DNA of 64,000 nt from a virus. Position 1 is the stretch's first letter; each line of letters begins with the position of its first letter. This document shows positions 25,360-33,343 of the stretch, one piece after another. The stretch is taken from positions 32,001 through 96,000 of IMG/VR virus record IMGVR_UViG_3300026521_000527; one strand, given 5' to 3'. A program made the position numbers and the translations under genes. The notes under the pieces are model-generated. The model saw only the letters and a program-made list of their open reading frames with translations. It was not told where the DNA came from and did not search any database.

Positions 25360-25386
25360 CGATCGGTGAGGTATCCTCACCGATCG
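25360..25386. repeat. Perfect inverted repeat (12-bp arms, 3-nt loop)
   Basis: cgatcggtgagg-tat-cctcaccgatcg just downstream of the JAB gene. Confidence 0.9.
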
Positions 25387-25394
25387 TTTATTTT

Positions 25395-26843
25395 TTAACC
25401 AAAAAGGGAACCCATTACTTTCCCAAGCCCAGTTAAACCATCATTTTCTGATTTTTTTGCATCAACATCAGTTGCATCAGTTGCATCATATATTTCAATA
25501 GAATCTTTGTCACTTGATATCAAACATGAATTTACTTGATTGATATCATAATCAAGTGTTCTCATTACGGATCTGATCTGTGGATCAGTGTAATGTTTAT
25601 ATTTTAACGCTTTAACGAAAGCTGCAGTATCTTCAGGGGTTGCACTTCCATCCACCCCAAATTTTTTAGGATCTAGTCCCAAAATATTCAGTTGTCTTTT
25701 CGCCTGCTGTTCTTTAAAAACAGGTCGTGTTGTTTGTGACAATTGAGTAGATTCATTGATTCCATCATAGATATCATCATAACCATCATAATCATATCCA
25801 GTATATATATTCCCTTTCCCAACACCACCTGAATATCTTGATGTATAATTGTAAGTTCTAGCCTTTATAAGATTCGGATCCATTATAAGGATCGGTTCAT
25901 ACTCACTGACCGTTAAAAATTCACTCAGTACTCTTTGAAGCTGCCCTTTTACAAAATCAACATCTTGTACTGGACAGTGTTTTGATTCCAGAACTCTAAA
26001 GTCAAAAATATTTTTAGCTTCCTCATTAACACCAGATTCATTGGAATCTGGTGTTCTAAAGAACTCATCGTACATTTTGATAACGGGAACATTTTCATCA
26101 ACCTCAGCGTCTTGTACAATAAAAGTCATTGTAGGCATTTCTGTATATGTACCATCAATACCACCATCTTCAAGTAAATTTACATTAACAACTTGTGTTT
26201 CTGTAACAACTATTTTAGTTGGTGTGTTAGTGCTAGGAATATACATAACACTATCTGTTTGTATTTTATCCTCTGCTACAGCGTTTCTAAAGATCACACC
26301 AGGATTCTCTGCTTTATTATCTCTATCAATTGTACTGAATCCAAAATCACCTGGATGTCTATGAATTGAACCCATCTCAAGTTCACGGGCTTCTAGTTCG
26401 AAGCCCCTTTCGATAAACTCTTCTTTTGGAAAAGCCTCTGCAAATTTTGCAACAAGTTGATCAGAAACAGGAATCAGTTGGTTTGAGATCTCACTAACTT
26501 CATCCAATGAAAAACTTACACTTGCTGTTGTAACTTCTTGAGAGAAGTTAAAGAACACAGTAGGTATTGTAAATACCATTCTTTGTCCTGTTTCCTGATG
26601 TTTAAATATCAGCTGAAGTCCTCTATAATGGACTTGATATTCTGCACCACCAGCTGCTGGTAAACCAAGGTCACGAACTTGGTTTAAAAGTTTTTGACTA
26701 TAAAGTACAACATTTAAAGTACTATTGCTTTTTCTTGTACTCGGTGTTTTTTTAACTCCAAAATAACTACCTACTTTTTTACCTATTCCCCATTTAGCCA
26801 TATTTTTTCCTTTATTTTTTTTTGATTTTTTTCTTTTTGCCAT
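25395..26843 (-). CDS. JAB/JAMM (MPN+) metallopeptidase-domain protein
   Basis: VVLYSQKLL...GGAEYQ (catalytic E) and GSIHRHPGDFGFSTID (HxH-x6-SxxD); Y/G/D-rich linker and helical C-terminal region. Confidence 0.75.
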   Translation of the reverse strand: MAKRKKSKKNKGKNMAKWGIGKKVGSYFGVKKTPSTRKSNSTLNVVLYSQKLLNQVRDLGLPAAGGAEYQVHYRGLQLIFKHQETGQRMVFTIPTVFFNFSQEVTTASVSFSLDEVSEISNQLIPVSDQLVAKFAEAFPKEEFIERGFELEARELEMGSIHRHPGDFGFSTIDRDNKAENPGVIFRNAVAEDKIQTDSVMYIPSTNTPTKIVVTETQVVNVNLLEDGGIDGTYTEMPTMTFIVQDAEVDENVPVIKMYDEFFRTPDSNESGVNEEAKNIFDFRVLESKHCPVQDVDFVKGQLQRVLSEFLTVSEYEPILIMDPNLIKARTYNYTSRYSGGVGKGNIYTGYDYDGYDDIYDGINESTQLSQTTRPVFKEQQAKRQLNILGLDPKKFGVDGSATPEDTAAFVKALKYKHYTDPQIRSVMRTLDYDINQVNSCLISSDKDSIEIYDATDATDVDAKKSENDGLTGLGKVMGSLFG

Positions 26844-26863: not shown

Positions 26864-27946
26864 TTAATCTGCATCAGATATTTGAGGATTTCTGGCCGCA
26901 CTGTATGCACCCCAAATCTCCGCACTAAATTTTTTACAAGCCATTATATATGGATATGTGCTTTTTTTCCAAAGAATATTACCGTAAAACATACTATTTA
27001 GGTTAACATTAGAAAGAGTCAACCATCCACTTCGTGCAGCTTTATTTTCAGAGCCAGTACAAACACTACCAGCACTTCTCAAATAAGACTCATTAATATT
27101 TCCACTCATCATCGGTGAAATATTATAACCAACCTGGTTATCCTTAGTTGGTTTTTCTATATACACCAATCCATAATATGGCGTACTAACGCCATCTGAT
27201 ATCTTTTGGAGCGGGATTAGAAGAGATTCTGGTTGAATACCACTTTGACTTATTTCTCTTATATTTATTTTAAGATTAACATCGTTCACTGATGAAATCT
27301 GAGGTCGTTCGATCATATTCAACATTTGATCTTTATCAACACTCACAGATCGTTCAATAATAGATGGTGACATTATTATATTTGGTGTCAGTTGCAAAAA
27401 CTTTACCAACTCATTAAAATACTCATCAGTTTTTGATTGAAGTGTTTCTGGTGCAATAGCCTCTTTAAAATAATTAACTCCCTGAATTCCATTACGCCAT
27501 TCATATATATGGAGTTTTCCCGTTTTTGGAAGCTCTATGATATTGGCATTATACATAAATGCAATTAAAGGGTGCAGTGGATTAATATTAAAGCCATCTT
27601 CAGTTGTCAGAAGGCAACCATATACTCCTTCATTTTGAGCAAGCTGTTGCAAAAATACTCCGATATCAATTGCATCCGAATTATATTCGATCGTTGTGAT
27701 CGCATCTTTACATGTCGATCTTATTTTATCCCATGATATTTTCGAATCATCATCCACTAATGAAAAAGATGGTAATGTATCACTAGTTATTGATGGTCTA
27801 ATATTCAACGGGATAAAAATATCTCCTTCTTGATTTAGCATCTGATTTCCCTCTTGCACTTCATCTGAAGTATATTTATTGATTGCATCCTGTGTGGACA
27901 TAATCAAAGAATGTGCTAAAATGGTTGTAGGTTGATTAAATTTCAT
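26864..27946 (-). CDS. Prokaryotic E2-like (Prok-E2 family D / PRTRC-B-like) protein
   Basis: C-terminal SPMMSGNI...GSVCTG resembles the P..N...G.VC.G core of prokaryotic E2s; lies between the ThiF and JAB genes. Confidence 0.6.
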   Translation of the reverse strand: MKFNQPTTILAHSLIMSTQDAINKYTSDEVQEGNQMLNQEGDIFIPLNIRPSITSDTLPSFSLVDDDSKISWDKIRSTCKDAITTIEYNSDAIDIGVFLQQLAQNEGVYGCLLTTEDGFNINPLHPLIAFMYNANIIELPKTGKLHIYEWRNGIQGVNYFKEAIAPETLQSKTDEYFNELVKFLQLTPNIIMSPSIIERSVSVDKDQMLNMIERPQISSVNDVNLKINIREISQSGIQPESLLIPLQKISDGVSTPYYGLVYIEKPTKDNQVGYNISPMMSGNINESYLRSAGSVCTGSENKAARSGWLTLSNVNLNSMFYGNILWKKSTYPYIMACKKFSAEIWGAYSAARNPQISDAD

Positions 27947-27955
27947 ATTTTCTCC

Positions 27956-28957
27956 TTATCCTAAAATATCCCACTCATCTTGAGTGCTCAGTTCAACAGC
28001 GTCTGGGTTAGCTTCTAAGTACTCAGCCATATTGAAAGTAAATATGTCAGAGTCATGTTCATAATCCTCACCTGTTCTTATCCTATTTGCCTCTTTTTTA
28101 ATCCAAGCAGCTGTTGCAACTTGAAAATTTAAAAGTAATACTGGGATATCGATACTCCCATAAGTTTCATTACCTAACTCGGTATTAACTACCGGCTGAT
28201 ATGTTAAATCAACTGATGTTCCTCCATGCCCAAAGAACATAAAATTCTTATCTTCAAGAAGCTTTCTGGTCTCAAAATCAGGTGCACCAATCATATTGTA
28301 TCCATTTTGAGCAAATAGATCAATTGCTTTTTGATCAACATACTCATTTTTATTCATTGGGCTAATGTCCTCAACCAACCATTTAAGATTTTTGGTGAGC
28401 ACTAATTTATATATACCACCGATCTCATCATCAATATCCCTAACCGTACTAGCACTTGTCTCCATCACAATATCTTCTCCAATTCGTGGGATATTTGTGA
28501 ACTCCAAGAAGTCCGCCTCCCTAACATGCATTCTATGGAAGATGCCTGGCACTTCTAATTTCATGCACCAGTATTGCAAGTTATAGAAGAAGTTAATCAT
28601 TGCACCGCCCATACCGATAGACAATATTTTATATTTGCTATCTTTTATGACTTTTAAATCATCTCTTGTTGGGACAATATCTAAATCTCTTATAATCTTC
28701 CAAAGCAACTTGTTATTGAAATGTCTAGGATATTTTCCATAGTCCTTTTTAATCTTTAAAAATAATCTAGCTTCCAATTTAGCTAAATTTGGATTCATGA
28801 TATTGAATCCAGATATATCCTGGAATGAGAAATTTTGCGGGTTTGCGTAATAATCAATGACAATTTTATTGTCATCAAACGGTAGAATTGAATTCGGTTT
28901 GTATCTCATTCTGAGATTCTCTTGAATCTCATTTTTAAGATTTATATCTGTGCTCAT
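27956..28957 (-). CDS. ThiF/E1-like adenylyltransferase
   Basis: KILSIGMGGA (GxGG), READFLEFTNIPRIG (D-x-D..E..N..R), IGAPDFETRKLL (Mg-binding D..R); ~100-aa N-terminal extension. Confidence 0.75.
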   Translation of the reverse strand: MSTDINLKNEIQENLRMRYKPNSILPFDDNKIVIDYYANPQNFSFQDISGFNIMNPNLAKLEARLFLKIKKDYGKYPRHFNNKLLWKIIRDLDIVPTRDDLKVIKDSKYKILSIGMGGAMINFFYNLQYWCMKLEVPGIFHRMHVREADFLEFTNIPRIGEDIVMETSASTVRDIDDEIGGIYKLVLTKNLKWLVEDISPMNKNEYVDQKAIDLFAQNGYNMIGAPDFETRKLLEDKNFMFFGHGGTSVDLTYQPVVNTELGNETYGSIDIPVLLLNFQVATAAWIKKEANRIRTGEDYEHDSDIFTFNMAEYLEANPDAVELSTQDEWDILG

Positions 28958-29040
28958 GTTTTTCCTTTAAATTTTTTGATTTCTTACTAGTTTCAATTCC
29001 AATTAAAAATATTTTTTAAGCTTAAAAAATAAAGAAGATT

Positions 29041-29116
29041 GAGGTGGGACGGGGGTGTCCTCTGACACCCCAACTCCGATAGATCTACATTAGATCAAAA
29101 TCGTTATCCCCACCTC
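29041..29116 (-). ncRNA. Candidate structured leader RNA (three-way junction)
   Basis: GC-rich island in AT-rich DNA: outer stem gaggtggg/cccacctc, inner hairpins cgat..gatcta-atg-tagatc..atcg and ggggtgtc-agag-gacacccc; upstream of the E1 gene. Confidence 0.4.
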
Positions 29117-29132
29117 CTACAATCACTTCCAT
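29085..29132 (-). CDS. Putative 15-aa peptide MEVIVGGGDNDFDLM
   Basis: AAGGAG-N5-ATG directly after the stop of 29143..29712; TAG stop; below the ORF track cutoff. Confidence 0.4.
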   Translation of the reverse strand: MEVIVGGGDNDFDLM

Positions 29133-29142
29133 CTTATCTCCT

Positions 29143-29712
29143 TTATAAGCGGATATTTAAGATCCATTTCATTTCTGAAAGACCTTTCAATCCACCTAGA
29201 TTTACTGCACCATAAAGCATATCTAGGACCTTTTTATGACGCAGATTAACTGGCAACATAATCCATTTCTCAAAGGTTTCACGATCATTAAGTTTAAGAT
29301 CGTTATCTTTAAGAACATTCGGCCACAAATCAGTAGCCGAAGTTTTCTCCAAGTCAGTATTGCTTAGAAAATGCAAGTACTTTATACTTGGAAAAAATGG
29401 ATTTTGCTCCTGAAGAACTTCTCTACTATACATGTAGAAACTTATATATTCTTCAGGAGCCAATTTTTTATACACTGGAATAAAGCGTTTAAAGCGATCG
29501 CCAGCTTTAGCTTTAAACGCTTTCGGGAAATGTTTCTTCAGTGTGTAATACTGAAGACCATCTTTCCCGCGATAAATTATCCGAGGTCCTTCTTCGAACT
29601 CTTTATCATATCCCAGGATGACGAATGGTTCCTGCCATCGCTGAACCAGCTTTTTTTTAAGCTGGTAAATATCATCAGCTATGTTCAGGAACCATTCAGG
29701 AATCTTGGCCAA
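29143..29712 (-). CDS. Hypothetical protein (first gene upstream of the E1-E2-JAB cluster)
   Basis: 189-aa ORF, SD AAGGAG, downstream of the candidate promoter at 29776. Confidence 0.75.
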   Translation of the reverse strand: MAKIPEWFLNIADDIYQLKKKLVQRWQEPFVILGYDKEFEEGPRIIYRGKDGLQYYTLKKHFPKAFKAKAGDRFKRFIPVYKKLAPEEYISFYMYSREVLQEQNPFFPSIKYLHFLSNTDLEKTSATDLWPNVLKDNDLKLNDRETFEKWIMLPVNLRHKKVLDMLYGAVNLGGLKGLSEMKWILNIRL

Positions 29713-29793: not shown

Positions 29794-30069
29794 TTATTGA
29801 TTTATTCTAAAATTCTTCCAGTCGAGTAATCTATCAAGATGTTTGATTTTAGAGCGCAGTAATTTATGAATCGCTCTAGATAATGGGTTATTATAATTTT
29901 CGGAAGCTACCTCTATATTGAATTCTTCTTGAAATCTTTTTTCCAGAAGAAGGATATCCTTCTGAACTTTTTCAATCAATGAATCTATAGAAACTCCATG
30001 AAAATCACAATACTCTTGAATATCTAAACCATAAATATCATCGTATGAAAATTCATTTGGTTTACTCAT
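29794..30069 (-). CDS. Hypothetical protein
   Basis: 91 aa, ATGA overlap with the topoisomerase gene. Confidence 0.7.
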   Translation of the reverse strand: MSKPNEFSYDDIYGLDIQEYCDFHGVSIDSLIEKVQKDILLLEKRFQEEFNIEVASENYNNPLSRAIHKLLRSKIKHLDRLLDWKNFRINQ

Positions 30070-31430
30070 ATCAAACCTTTTTCTTTAAGTTCGTCCTGTA
30101 CGAATTCTTTTATTTCAAGCAATTCAGTACAAAATAACTCTACTGGTTTTTGTCGTTTTTTTACTTTTAAAAGCTTTTTAAGTTCAGTGCTTTTTGAACG
30201 AAATTCTTTTATTTTTTCTGGTGTCAAATTCCATATCCGCATATTTAAAAGATAATCGAAAGAACCATCAATCTCAAGAATTTCTTTTTCTTTTAAATCT
30301 TTAATCAAATCTATTTTTTTCTTATTAACTATTATTTCACCAGAATTTACTAAATCAATAAAATGAATTCTATTTTCAAGAATAGTTAATTCTTCTTCAA
30401 TCTTCATAATTTCATAATCAATTCTTTTTTGATACCAAGGGAGTCTTTGAGTCAAAAAGAACTCTAAATATTCTTCGGCTGTCTCAAATGTCATTATTGG
30501 ATCGAAACTGGAGTTTGGGTAAATGAAAGTAAAATTCTCTTGAATTTTATCGCGGAGGCCTAATGTATTTATAATTTCTTCATCAGTTAAACTTTTAGGA
30601 TTCTCAGTAAACCTAATATTGAAAAAGAACTCATTCTCAATACATCTTTCGGTAAATGATTTTATTATTCCCTTTTCTTGAAGCTTCTTTAATTTTTTAA
30701 TATAAGATTCCCTAGTATAATTCGGAGGGATTTCAGTTACTTCAATTGAATTTCTTTTAGCTCTAGTAAAGCAACCGAGTATTTCATAAGAACCATTATT
30801 TTCACCTTTAACTATTGAACCTTTAAAATAAGGAAAGGCTACCTCAATTTCAGACATATTTTGAGTTCTAAGGAACTCGATACTTGAATCTATAATTGAT
30901 AATGGGTGTCTTGGTAAAAAACTACTCGCGAATCCATTCGCAATAGCTGAGTTTCCATTTATAAGCATTATTGGAATTATTGGTAAAAAATGTTCCGGTT
31001 CTATCTCAGCTCCCTCAAAATATTGAGGAGTCAAAAGAGGTTTATCTTCATTTCTAAAAATCAATCTGGCTGCATCACTAAAACGAGTATTGGTATATCT
31101 TGGTCCACCAGCAGTCTTATCAGTCCTTGTCCCAAAGTTACCTTCTTCTGTAAAAATATTTATATTATTGGTAGCAGATCTAGACATACTTTCAGATGTA
31201 TTAAATGCGCTTGCGTCACCATGCCTGTATTTCATTTTATTATATATTAATCCATATGTCTCAGCCGTCTTGAGCTTCCGAGACCTAGGAAGCTCACTAA
31301 GAACTTGAATTAATTTTCTTTGAGTATTCGCTAAGGTATCGAGAGCATGTGGGATTCTCTGAAGAACTTTATAAACTGAATAATTCGTGTAGCGATCTTC
31401 TAAGAAAGCTTTCAAATGATTATTTGACAT
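30066..31430 (-). CDS. Type IIA DNA topoisomerase, cleavage subunit (T4 gp52/GyrA-like)
   Basis: LANTQRKLI, YRHGDAS, GNFGTR...PRYT (catalytic Tyr), PIIPIMLINGNSAIANGF. Confidence 0.95.
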   Translation of the reverse strand: MSNNHLKAFLEDRYTNYSVYKVLQRIPHALDTLANTQRKLIQVLSELPRSRKLKTAETYGLIYNKMKYRHGDASAFNTSESMSRSATNNINIFTEEGNFGTRTDKTAGGPRYTNTRFSDAARLIFRNEDKPLLTPQYFEGAEIEPEHFLPIIPIMLINGNSAIANGFASSFLPRHPLSIIDSSIEFLRTQNMSEIEVAFPYFKGSIVKGENNGSYEILGCFTRAKRNSIEVTEIPPNYTRESYIKKLKKLQEKGIIKSFTERCIENEFFFNIRFTENPKSLTDEEIINTLGLRDKIQENFTFIYPNSSFDPIMTFETAEEYLEFFLTQRLPWYQKRIDYEIMKIEEELTILENRIHFIDLVNSGEIIVNKKKIDLIKDLKEKEILEIDGSFDYLLNMRIWNLTPEKIKEFRSKSTELKKLLKVKKRQKPVELFCTELLEIKEFVQDELKEKGLI

Positions 31431-31450: not shown

Positions 31451-33343
31451 TTATATTAAATTGATGTCGAAATTATCTATTGCTGAAGAAATTTTTCGTT
31501 TTCTAAAAGCAATGTCATCACTCAACCAACCGATTAATTCAGCTATCTCTTCTTCAGTGTTTTCAGACTCTTTTAAATGCAATGGTTCTAATAATTCATC
31601 AAGAGTGTATCTTTTAAATAACTCTTTCCATTCCAACTTCTCTAGAGTACCAAGTCCTTTTTTATAGTCAAATATCAACCCAGCTTTTTTATTTTTCGCT
31701 TGGAATTCTTCCAGCTCTTGCATAGAGAATATAAAACTATGTATTTTTCCAATGCCAGAATAAACAGTAATTAATGGGGTGATGAATCTAAATACTTTAC
31801 CCTCGTATAAATATTTAGGAAAATATTTATAAATAAACCCGAGCACCAATCCTGCGATATGGTCTCCGTCTACATCCATATCAGTAGCTATAGCTATTGA
31901 ATCGTAAACTAGATTTTCATTATCATTTTTCGATAAATCCAATCCAAGAATTGTCGCCAGTTGTTTTATTTCAGCATTTGATAGAACTTTTTTACTATCT
32001 TTTATAACATTGAGAATTACACCCTTCAATGGGAAGAAACCATTTTCCGAACGTCCTATTCTAGATATAATTGAAGTAATTGCAGTATCTCCTTCAGCTA
32101 TGAATAATCTCTTTGGGTCATCAGTCGCTGGCCAGAATTTTTCAGGGAGATCTTGTTGCTTCGTCGCTTTCTTTAACGCTTTGCTTTCTTCAACAAGCAT
32201 CTTTGCTTTATATAAATCAGTAATTGGATCAATGATATTTTTATTTTTATAGACTCTGTTGATAAATAACAGGAACTTCTTTTTAATTTCTGGAGAATTG
32301 AAATCAAGATATCCTGTTATCTCAGCCTGGGTGTTCGTGAGGAATTCTTTCGTCTGTCCATCAAATTTAGCCCCAGGAAAATTCCTAAAAAAGATTACAC
32401 AAGACAATTTATTTTTTATGTCACCTGGCTTAATAGACTTAAATTTTCTAACTAGTTTTTCACGGAGAGCACCAGTTAATTGACGCACAAGAAATTCTAC
32501 ATGATTTCCACCTTTTTCTAACCATAAGCTATTAACATATGAATGAAATCTAAAATCGTTTGAGTCATTTGGAACACAAGCCATAAAGAAATCATCAGTG
32601 CTAAAAATTTCAAAAGTTTCATTAAATAATCCTATAAATTTTTTAGGATCGTATTTTACAACTCTATTATTAAATTTAAATCTAATCTCGGGATAGAGAA
32701 CACTGAGATTTATTATTCTTTGGTGTATTAGTGAAGTATGTAAATCGTCTATTTCTTTAAGCCCAAACCGTTCTAAATCCGGTTCGAAAAGAACTGCAGT
32801 TCCTTGTGTCTCAGTCTTGAGTTCAGTAATTGATGTTGAACTTAAGTTATCTTTGAACTCAACACGAAGTCTTTTTTCACCATCATCTGTTACACCAATA
32901 AATTTTTTACTGAATACAGTAGTTGCAAAAGATCCAATACCATTCATCCCAGCGGAGACTCTTTTATCATCATCTTCGAAATTTGAACCAGCTCTTGCTT
33001 GTCCCCAAGCTATTTCTGGAAGCCAATGACCACCTTCTTTTTTAACAGGGATCCCGTAACCATTATCTTGGACTTTAACTCTTTTTGGGGTTATATTGAT
33101 ATTAATTTCATTTGCAAATTTGAAGTTACTTTTTATGGCAACATCTATACTATTATCAATAATCTCATTAATAATCTTTACAAGGCCGGGAATGTATAAA
33201 TATTCTGTCCATTGAAAACAGGAACCTTTTAATAAAAAGGATTCCTGTTTAACTGTCTGCAAACTACCAATTATATTATGTCCTCTTATTAATAGCCAAT
33301 CTCTATCCGAGAGAACTTTTATATCATTTGAATTTTTACTCAT
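31451..33343 (-). CDS. Type IIA DNA topoisomerase, ATPase+TOPRIM subunit (T4 gp39+60/GyrB-like)
   Basis: EIIDNSID, DNGYGIP, GMNGIG, FDGQTKE, IAEGDTA, FPLKG, ATDMDVDGDHI. Confidence 0.95.
   Translation of the reverse strand: MSKNSNDIKVLSDRDWLLIRGHNIIGSLQTVKQESFLLKGSCFQWTEYLYIPGLVKIINEIIDNSIDVAIKSNFKFANEININITPKRVKVQDNGYGIPVKKEGGHWLPEIAWGQARAGSNFEDDDKRVSAGMNGIGSFATTVFSKKFIGVTDDGEKRLRVEFKDNLSSTSITELKTETQGTAVLFEPDLERFGLKEIDDLHTSLIHQRIINLSVLYPEIRFKFNNRVVKYDPKKFIGLFNETFEIFSTDDFFMACVPNDSNDFRFHSYVNSLWLEKGGNHVEFLVRQLTGALREKLVRKFKSIKPGDIKNKLSCVIFFRNFPGAKFDGQTKEFLTNTQAEITGYLDFNSPEIKKKFLLFINRVYKNKNIIDPITDLYKAKMLVEESKALKKATKQQDLPEKFWPATDDPKRLFIAEGDTAITSIISRIGRSENGFFPLKGVILNVIKDSKKVLSNAEIKQLATILGLDLSKNDNENLVYDSIAIATDMDVDGDHIAGLVLGFIYKYFPKYLYEGKVFRFITPLITVYSGIGKIHSFIFSMQELEEFQAKNKKAGLIFDYKKGLGTLEKLEWKELFKRYTLDELLEPLHLKESENTEEEIAELIGWLSDDIAFRKRKISSAIDNFDINLI

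Follow-up and report, generated by a model that had tools for sequence, protein, structure and literature searches.

The DNA considered here is a 64,000-nucleotide (nt) stretch of IMG/VR virus record IMGVR_UViG_3300026521_000527 (positions 32,001 to 96,000 of the record), which is called the window below. The record is that of a phage, probably from a hydrothermal-vent metagenome, spans 136.9 kb with a GC content of 29.7%, and has a CheckV completeness estimate of 49%. On the minus strand of the window, a conserved gene for a 189-amino-acid (aa) protein is followed by an open reading frame (ORF) of only 15 codons, and then by a gene cassette for a ThiF/E1-like adenylation enzyme, a protein with conserved Cys and His residues, and a JAMM-like protein (Table 1). 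Much of this micro-ORF lies within a GC-rich RNA three-way junction. We favor the view that the micro-ORF is a real gene and that the E1-like enzyme has its product as a partner or substrate. On the same view, the junction is an RNA element in its own right, a terminator or attenuator specific to this lineage. Taken as a whole, this view appears to us evenly balanced between right and wrong, and its parts merit different degrees of confidence.

A previous sequence-only reading of the locus had noted the start signal AAGGAG-N5-ATG and a 15-codon frame immediately after the stop of the 189-aa gene, and reading of the minus strand bears this out. The frame encodes MEVIVGGGDNDFDLM and ends with a TAG stop (29085-29087), for a total of 48 nt. 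The Shine-Dalgarno (SD) sequence overlaps the TAA stop of the 189-aa gene (29143-29145), and a 5-nt spacer, ATAAG, separates it from the ATG (29130-29132). This start signal is gene-like: AAGGAG-N4-8-ATG occurs at 24 sites in the 137-kb genome, 19 of which open ORFs of at least 60 codons. The ORF had also been placed directly upstream of the E1 gene. It does precede that gene, but not immediately: 127 nt lie between the end of the peptide frame (29085) and the E1-like start (28957).

Related loci were fetched for comparison (n = 25). Of the 16 loci with the gene order of the window, 15 have a small same-strand ORF in the slot that precedes the E1-like gene (L002-L011 and L023-L026, in addition to the window), and L012 has none. 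The L006 peptide is an exact repeat of the 15-aa window peptide, and family members are otherwise 22-39 aa long. Their design is shared, with a short hydrophobic or aromatic strand (e.g., IYDG or VWVDG) followed by an Asp/Glu-rich run and then by a hydrophobic C-terminus. Examples are the peptides that end in ...GTYVYDGSDDEDTGIITFI (L007), ...TPIYDGADPDDDGNPIELLY (L008), ...KVWVDGMPDPDDDSESMTLN (L003), ...DYIYGDDDNDYDIFI (L009), ...NIYGDGHDDVDGQDGVIAIF (L026), and ...CGWFIDEDDDDVTITY (L025). Five of the slot ORFs had already been predicted independently by gene callers. Most have their own SD, two (L002 and L003) overlap the upstream stop as ATGA, and in three loci the SD of the E1-like gene comes at once after the peptide stop. 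The family peptides are present in the protein collection as unnamed singletons. A programmed frameshift that fuses the 189-aa protein to the peptide was also considered and was rejected, as the ATGA overlaps in L002 and L003, inspected by eye, contain no slippery site.

Peptide conservation across related phage loci had been suggested as a check on the ORF, and it is evident at these 15 loci. In leave-one-out profile searches, every member ranks between 1 and 6 among approximately 9,200 six-frame segments, with E values down to 2e-5. The codons of the L007 and L011 peptides differ by 10 synonymous and six non-synonymous changes at 60% nt identity, and those of L005 and L002 differ by four synonymous changes and one non-synonymous change. 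Because synonymous codon changes lie under conserved residues, selection acts on the protein. Conservation is strongest in the Asp/Glu run and at the hydrophobic, often aromatic, end. Furthermore, L005 lacks the 189-aa gene, and there the peptide ORF and then E1 come straight after the homologue of the 91-aa gene (43% identity, E 1e-15). Because the peptide is kept before E1 even without the 189-aa gene, it travels with E1.

The peptide of the window can be read by eye as VIV-GGG-DNDFD-LM, which preserves the hydrophobic-Gly-acidic-hydrophobic order of the family. Scored pairwise against the peptide of L009, it reaches 41, which is rank 2 of 8,969 genome segments, and a profile from which the window peptide was left out (A7) ranks it fourth among the same segments, but with an E value of 3.8. 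A regular expression that is unique to the window ORF among the 8,969 segments carries little weight, as it was written after the sequence had been seen. The peptide is the shortest of the family and has GGG where its relatives have Y-D-G, a difference that may reflect a second constraint, the formation of the GC-rich outer stem of the junction. Given its position, its start signal, its design, and the pairwise link to L009, the window peptide is a probable family member. We therefore consider it very likely that the micro-ORF is a real gene that belongs to this acidic microprotein family. It is probably the shortest known member of a group of 15-39-aa acidic microproteins from large phages in hydrothermal-vent and marine samples.

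Table 1. Features of the micro-ORF locus in the window, with peptide precursors from related loci.
Feature	Position	Strand	Remarks
Topoisomerase II subunit genes	31451-33343 and 30066-31430	minus	upstream end of the gene series
91-aa gene		minus	between the topoisomerase II subunits and the 189-aa gene
189-aa gene, conserved	29143..29712	minus	stop 10 nt before the micro-ORF ATG
SD sequence AAGGAG of the micro-ORF	29138..29143	minus	shares the last base of the 189-aa TAA stop
Micro-ORF, candidate acidic microprotein gene	29085..29132	minus	including the TAG stop
Three-way junction, 76 nt	29041..29116	minus	covers micro-ORF codons 6-15 and the stop
Weak basal helix, 3′ strand AUCUUCUUUA	29030..29039	minus	pairs with the stop/SD region UAAAGGAGAU (29136-29145)
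U6 run	29024..29029	minus	directly after the basal helix; terminator-like geometry
Gene for the 333-aa ThiF/E1-like adenylation enzyme	27956..28957	minus	
Gene for the 360-aa protein with Cys296 and His125	26864..27946	minus	earlier labeled E2
Gene for the 482-aa JAMM-like protein	25395..26843	minus	polybasic N-terminus
Palindromic GC hairpin with T-run	25360..25386		just 3′ of the last cassette gene; from terminator scan
Cassette parts with identical RNA-library contigs	25602-26319, 26948-27505, 28143-28298, 28447-28731, 29103-29461		
Sister-clade precursor	L017:2158-2898		20-aa leader ending AKSG, four tandem 54-57-aa units, final Lys
Sister-clade precursor	L019:1-560		at least three 54-aa units and a short tail
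Sister-clade precursor	L015:2644-2886		one unit between two copies of the cleavage-like motif

The sequence-only reading had further described a GC-rich nested structure of about 76 nt with an outer stem and two hairpins, and folding of 29041-29116 reproduces it. The predicted energy is -38.5 kcal/mol, a value reached by not one of 200 shuffles (shuffle mean -22.4, z -5.38). The 8-bp outer stem, GAGGUGGG/CCCACCUC, pairs 29109-29116 with 29041-29048, and its 5′ strand is formed by the three Gly codons GGA GGU GGG. Hairpin 1 (29077-29103) presents the last sense codon, AUG, as its loop and holds the stop codon in its 3′ strand, and hairpin 2 (29052-29071) is a GC hairpin. Local GC is 0.51 at the junction versus 0.30 for the genome, in which the junction is unique, and a DNA pattern of the ORF plus outer stem has no second copy in viral contigs. 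The region yielded no tRNA or tmRNA match with ARAGORN and no Rfam match at the gathering score, with chance-level matches at E up to 10. In both the minimum free energy and centroid structures of 29020-29145, a weak basal helix extends the junction. Because one strand of this helix is the SD/start region and the other lies immediately ahead of the U6 run, the whole has the geometry of an intrinsic terminator.

Only two sequences carry the junction, and automatic alignment of hairpin 2 between them is meaningless. In L006, whose E1-like protein is 87% identical, the SD, the ORF, and hairpin 1 are as in the window and the junction is kept (z -5.36). Its hairpin 2 is made from another GC-rich sequence of another length, and its basal helix is shifted to cover the start codon instead of the SD (AUAUGGAAG with CUUCUAUAU). 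In each of the other 13 loci, the fold predicted for this region is no more stable than those of shuffled sequences (z +1.27 to -2.43), such that the base pairing seen in the window is conserved in none of them; L002 and L005 have small hairpin-plus-U motifs near their ORFs. Because it is restricted to the window and L006, the junction is a lineage-specific RNA element, separate from the conserved cassette. A mosaic boundary between the two sequences falls at 29048-29098: identity is ~95% over the segment between 29757 and hairpin 1, hairpin 1 included, and falls to ~80% over the part that starts with hairpin 2 and takes in the E1, Cys-protein, and JAMM-like genes.

The cassette is flanked by the topoisomerase II genes on one side and, farther downstream, by SbcD- and SbcC-like genes on the other, and the GC hairpin with T-run listed in Table 1 is likely its operon terminator. 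The 189-aa, E1-like, 360-aa, and 482-aa proteins have no match in Pfam, PHROGs, PADLOC, or NCBIfam. Metagenomic relatives number 28 for the 333-aa protein and 67 for the 482-aa protein, all of them unnamed and without Pfam domains. Neither blastn against the phage collection nor a protein-pattern scan of viral contigs found relatives.

The assignment of the neighboring gene to the E1/ThiF enzymes, made earlier from the sequence, is upheld by structural modeling. The AlphaFold2 (AF2) model of the 333-aa protein has a predicted local distance difference test (pLDDT) value of 88.8, and Foldseek matches it to ThiF, MoeB, PaaA, MccB, AclA, UBA5, and Cap2 with E values of ~1e-5 to 1e-4. VIA-align gives Z scores of 10-11.7 over 176-249 aligned residues, with root-mean-square deviations of 3.2-4.6 Å. 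Small E1s align to residues ~97-315, and the BilD-type bacterial E1 (8tz0, Z 11.7) aligns from residue 10. MoeB, ThiF, AclA, and Cap2 (VIA Z 11 for the last) align from approximately residue 97, and MccB and PaaA are present in the Foldseek list only, with no aligned ranges. Thus, as modeled, the protein has the fold of the ThiF/E1 superfamily, with an all-helical N-terminal domain (residues 1-96) ahead of an adenylation domain (~97-315). The nucleotide-binding motifs GxGGAMxN and ExD are conserved, with G115/G117/G118, N155, R158, and K184 invariant, and the family has no conserved Cys. By sequence, PF00899 does not match the window protein at the gathering score and matches three of the 28 relatives (best E 0.006). 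Six-frame searches of the phage genome with PF14464 and PF00899 found nothing, and a PDB sequence search with the E1 profile returned chance matches only. A predicted complex of two copies of the L007 E1-like protein with its 31-aa peptide (score 0.18, mark 0.32) speaks neither for nor against binding.

Some variation is apparent around this gene in other loci. The E1-like gene of L026 was called as two ORFs of 152 and 150 aa (L026:2433-3337) and is possibly split or frameshifted, and a homing-endonuclease-like gene lies farther downstream. In L020 and L021, a second E1-like copy follows the JAMM-like gene (L020:6508-6960 and L021:4225-4671), and a 112-aa hydrophobic protein that ends in ...YYLNYRCDCDYLLIEISEKK precedes the first.

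The best argument that the peptide is a substrate and not a bystander comes from a sister clade whose E1-like and Cys proteins are ~30% identical to those of the window. Here, the gene before E1 encodes a Ser/Thr-rich precursor made of 54-57-aa units that end in ...S(I/V)QATAKSG, with a leader that closes on the same motif and a short cap (K or VFA) after the last unit. Precursors of this type are listed in Table 1, and L014 and L016 also have tandem-unit precursors upstream of E1. This layout is polyubiquitin-like or like that of a multi-core precursor of ribosomally synthesized peptides that undergo post-translational modification (RiPPs). A peptide gene before E1 thus recurs with unrelated sequences, which is the reason for the weight we give it. 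The resemblance to polyubiquitin lies in the head-to-tail units that end in Gly and, in L017, in the one extra residue after the last unit. The resemblance to Pup-type modifiers is that the units are of low complexity and probably disordered. However, the 54-57-aa Ser/Thr-rich units are unrelated in sequence to either, and the window peptide has neither the repeat nor the AKSG motif.

The two genes after E1 are harder to classify. The 360-aa protein has an invariant Cys296 (in VCTGSE) and an invariant His125 (in NPLHPL), 171 residues apart in alignment A3. Its AF2 model (pLDDT 80.6) matches no solved structure, the best results being E 0.18 with Foldseek and Z 3.8 in a wide VIA search, and the E2 label once attached to this gene is accordingly unsupported. 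Among the weak top rows of that search (Z 2.9-3.8), residues 73-157 align with the papain-like Cys proteases UfSP1, interpain, AvrPphB, and SpeB. Acidic ends such as EEVA, ETEVA, and ELEEA are common among the Cys proteins of the clade to which the window belongs. In the sister clade, both the E1 and Cys proteins have acidic tails that finish in D/E-W.

The 482-aa protein had been labeled JAB. The part of this label that holds is the motif, which in alignment A5 consists of E68 and E156-GS-H161-R-H163-PGxFxF-S170-xx-D173. E68 and H161-R-H163-x6-S170-xx-D173 are invariant, and the spacing is one residue shorter than the canonical E...HxH-x7-S-xx-D. The part that does not hold is any match in Pfam, among PDB sequences searched with the JAMM-like profile, or to PF14464, and the ESM Atlas gave no usable match for this protein or for the 360-aa protein. 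We consequently call the protein JAMM-like by its motif only. In all JAMM-like proteins of this group, the first 15-25 residues are rich in Lys/Arg, and a conserved Met-x-x-Trp comes next.

Given these observations, we tentatively propose that the acidic peptide is the substrate or partner of the E1-like enzyme, a proposal that we place slightly short of an even chance. On this reading, the micro-ORF would be translated, the E1-like enzyme would bind the peptide and adenylate its carboxylate, and the JAMM-like and Cys/His proteins encoded downstream would process or transfer the product. The earlier suggestion that the ORF supplies the missing substrate of the cassette is therefore sustained in part: the ORF is very likely real and belongs with the E1-like gene at 15 loci, and its role as substrate is the portion that we advance with more reserve.

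Precedent for such chemistry is found among ThiF-like enzymes. MccB, PaaA, EnfB, and IndF adenylate the short ribosomal peptides MccA, PaaP, EnfA, and IndA, respectively, and MccA, which is only 7 aa long, has its carboxylate activated with ATP by its ThiF/E1-fold partner (PMC12250964, PMC12596934). E1 enzymes act in this way on the tails of ubiquitin-like proteins. The peptide-enzyme pairs, together with GrcA/GrcB, share with the phage locus a very short peptide gene beside a gene for a ThiF/E1-fold enzyme, and the solved structures that match the phage enzyme include the peptide-activating MccB, PaaA, and AclA. The differences are nevertheless considerable. No RiPP recognition element (RRE) or peptide clamp is recognized in the helical N-terminal domain of the phage enzyme, which also lacks a Pfam ThiF match at threshold. 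The phage peptides have neither a conserved C-terminal Asn nor a Glu-Glu or Glu-Glu-Asn core, and the cassette has no transporter or immunity genes. Instead, it lies in a replication/recombination module, with genes for JAMM-like and Cys/His proteins downstream. Reviews of ThiF-like peptide chemistry make no mention of phages or JAB proteins (PMC12250964, PMC12596934), and our search of the literature on phage-encoded E1/JAMM systems found only bacterial defense and archaeal systems.

Several observations weigh against the reading we favor. The peptide family has no conserved C-terminal residue and no invariant Gly, and no specific chemistry can be read from the peptides. At the site where MoeB/ThiF have their Mg-binding Asp, members of the E1-like family have T, D, or N (D in the window), such that adenylation activity is not assured. 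With regard to the window peptide itself, a profile built from the 13-member alignment ranks it 2,177th with an E value of 740, and the peptide is too short for statistics, as even the better profile gives only the E of 3.8 noted above. The identity of the ORF in L006 is weak evidence, because the two sequences are ~95% identical over the whole upstream segment. The contigs in Table 1 come from a biofilm metatranscriptome (X2, from a different study than the probable source sample) and show that phage DNA or RNA was in the library, not that the peptide is expressed. One of them spans the SD and the first 10 codons of the micro-ORF, and no RNA contig in this library covers 28732-29102. The library gives neither transcription, ends, nor levels, because it offers only contigs and DNA carry-over is possible. 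As for the RNA element, the U-run is 11 nt from the GC-rich outer stem with the gap bridged by a weak A-U helix only, the junction site is not among the results of the simple terminator scan, and structural conservation amounts to a single structure-preserving replacement between the window and L006.

Some of these points would fit an ORF that exists by chance, in which a GC-rich terminator after the 189-aa gene happens to contain 15 open codons and the lineage has lost the peptide gene. Short ORFs are common by chance, this one is half the usual length, and both its poor rank in the 13-member profile and its GGG in place of Y-D-G would be expected of an accident. However, the ORF has a strong, gene-like SD with matching spacing, sits in the right slot on the right strand, keeps the order of residue classes of the family, and is linked to L009 by its second-ranked pairwise score, in addition to being identical in L006. 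For these reasons, we judge a chance origin to be decidedly unlikely.

We hold a similarly low opinion of the proposal that the peptide is a minimal ubiquitin-like modifier. In this scheme, the JAMM-like protein would cut at VGG|G, the E1-like enzyme would adenylate the newly exposed Gly, and the N-terminal peptide would be conjugated via the Cys protein. A hydrophobic strand followed by Gly does resemble the tail of a ubiquitin-like protein (Ubl), the Gly is there in most members, and the E1 fold of the neighbor, the JAMM-like motif, and the capped, head-to-tail Gly-ending units of the sister clade are all in keeping with it. Nevertheless, the cleavage at VGG|G put forward in the sequence-only reading finds no support in L004, L024, and L025, in which the Gly is missing. 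Moreover, the N-terminal part that would serve as the modifier is the most variable portion of the family, whereas the acidic tail that would be discarded is the most conserved. The 360-aa protein matched no E2 fold, and the JAMM assignment depends on the motif. The GGG of the window is also internal and not a C-terminal Gly-Gly. Beta-grasp modifiers such as ThiS, MoaD, and ubiquitin (Ub) have ~65-100 residues, and peptides of 15 aa, or of 22-39 aa elsewhere in the family, cannot hold this fold because they are too short.

The cassette can also be compared with the bacterial Bil, Bub, and cyclic oligonucleotide-based antiphage signaling system (CBASS) Cap2/Cap3 operons. The E1 fold is the best match class for the phage enzyme, and a metalloprotease-like gene is present in the operon, as in these systems; Cap2 acts on a bare C-terminal protein tail and not on a beta-grasp domain. 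In contrast, the phage cassette has no gene for a beta-grasp Ubl and no recognizable E2 fold, its E1-like protein lacks a conserved catalytic Cys, it has no PADLOC or NCBIfam match, and it is encoded by a phage rather than in a host defense island. Perhaps a group of large phages encodes a ubiquitin-like activation system with modifiers that are not beta-grasp proteins but tiny or disordered peptides, namely acidic ones of 15-39 aa in the clade of the window and polyubiquitin-like tandem units of 54-57 aa with a final Gly in the sister clade. In such a system, the E1-fold enzyme would activate the peptide and the JAMM-like protease and the new Cys/His protein would process or transfer it, with activity during infection, beside the replication and recombination genes. 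This broader idea is conceivable, but on present grounds rather unlikely.

A third alternative is that the acidic run and hydrophobic end serve as a docking or decoy peptide that would bind a basic surface with no chemical modification. Possible targets include a protein of host replication or repair and, within the cassette, the polybasic N-terminus of the JAMM-like product. The acidic C-terminal tips of single-strand-binding proteins such as SSB and T7 gp2.5 provide a model for this arrangement. The parts of the peptide that would make such contacts are the most conserved, genes for topoisomerase II and SbcCD flank the cassette, acidic tails that end in D/E-W are found on the E1 and Cys proteins of the sister clade, and the Lys/Arg-rich start is present in all JAMM-like proteins. 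However, a docking role does not account for the fact that the peptide gene is strictly linked to the E1-like gene in different clades, nor for the tandem-unit precursors of the sister clade, and we rate it as quite improbable.

The least probable of the alternatives, and one of the two first suggested for this locus, is a leader-peptide attenuator for the cassette in which only the act of translation matters, the peptide is functionless, and the junction with its U-run gates transcription into E1: the ORF does lie inside the structure, the SD (in the window) or the start codon (in L006) pairs with the tract before the U6 run, and the stop codon and Gly codons form parts of hairpin 1 and the outer stem, yet 13 related loci keep the ORF and its amino-acid pattern without the structure, many codon changes are synonymous, there is no run of regulatory codons, no alternative antiterminator has been demonstrated, and it is thus the peptide and not the pairing that is conserved.

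Under our preferred reading, the junction and the peptide gene are separate matters. It is reasonable to speculate that the junction is a translation-sensitive terminator or attenuator, or perhaps a stabilizer of the mRNA end, between the upstream genes and the E1 operon, and a ribosome translating the micro-ORF would melt the terminator-like structure. As in intrinsic terminators and translation-coupled attenuators, a gene end is marked by stable, GC-rich structure with a U-run after it, and the micro-ORF lies within this structure together with its SD. The junction differs in that it is a branched three-way junction, not a single hairpin, in that its GC-rich stem is distant from the U-run, and in that it is not conserved beyond one close relative. 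The consensus terminator scan that did not list the site at 29024-29029 considers single hairpins only. We put the prospect that the junction and U6 run act as a terminator or attenuator a little below even, and by itself such an RNA element would be ordinary.

The peptide gene is of wider consequence. Short peptide genes are routinely missed by annotation, and the one described here is tied by position to an E1-fold enzyme in many uncultured giant phages, in a cassette whose proteins are all unnamed and invisible to the family collections searched. If the peptide is indeed a substrate, the cassette would be a phage-borne peptide-activation or peptide-tagging system of new design, and the sister clade, with its tandem precursors, would offer a parallel to polyubiquitin that does not involve the ubiquitin fold. 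A synthetic 15-mer and one enzyme would then provide a simple test of E1-like handling without a beta-grasp fold. Even with a role limited to that of a docking or decoy tail, the peptide would still represent a new conserved microprotein family.

Lastly, a recurring A/T-rich motif, AAAAA(T)TTAAAGGA(A/T), lies 5′ of the micro-ORFs and E1 genes in many loci, with examples at 28960-28980 in the window and at L011:5-26. This motif may combine a late-promoter-like TATAAA/TTTAAA box with an SD.

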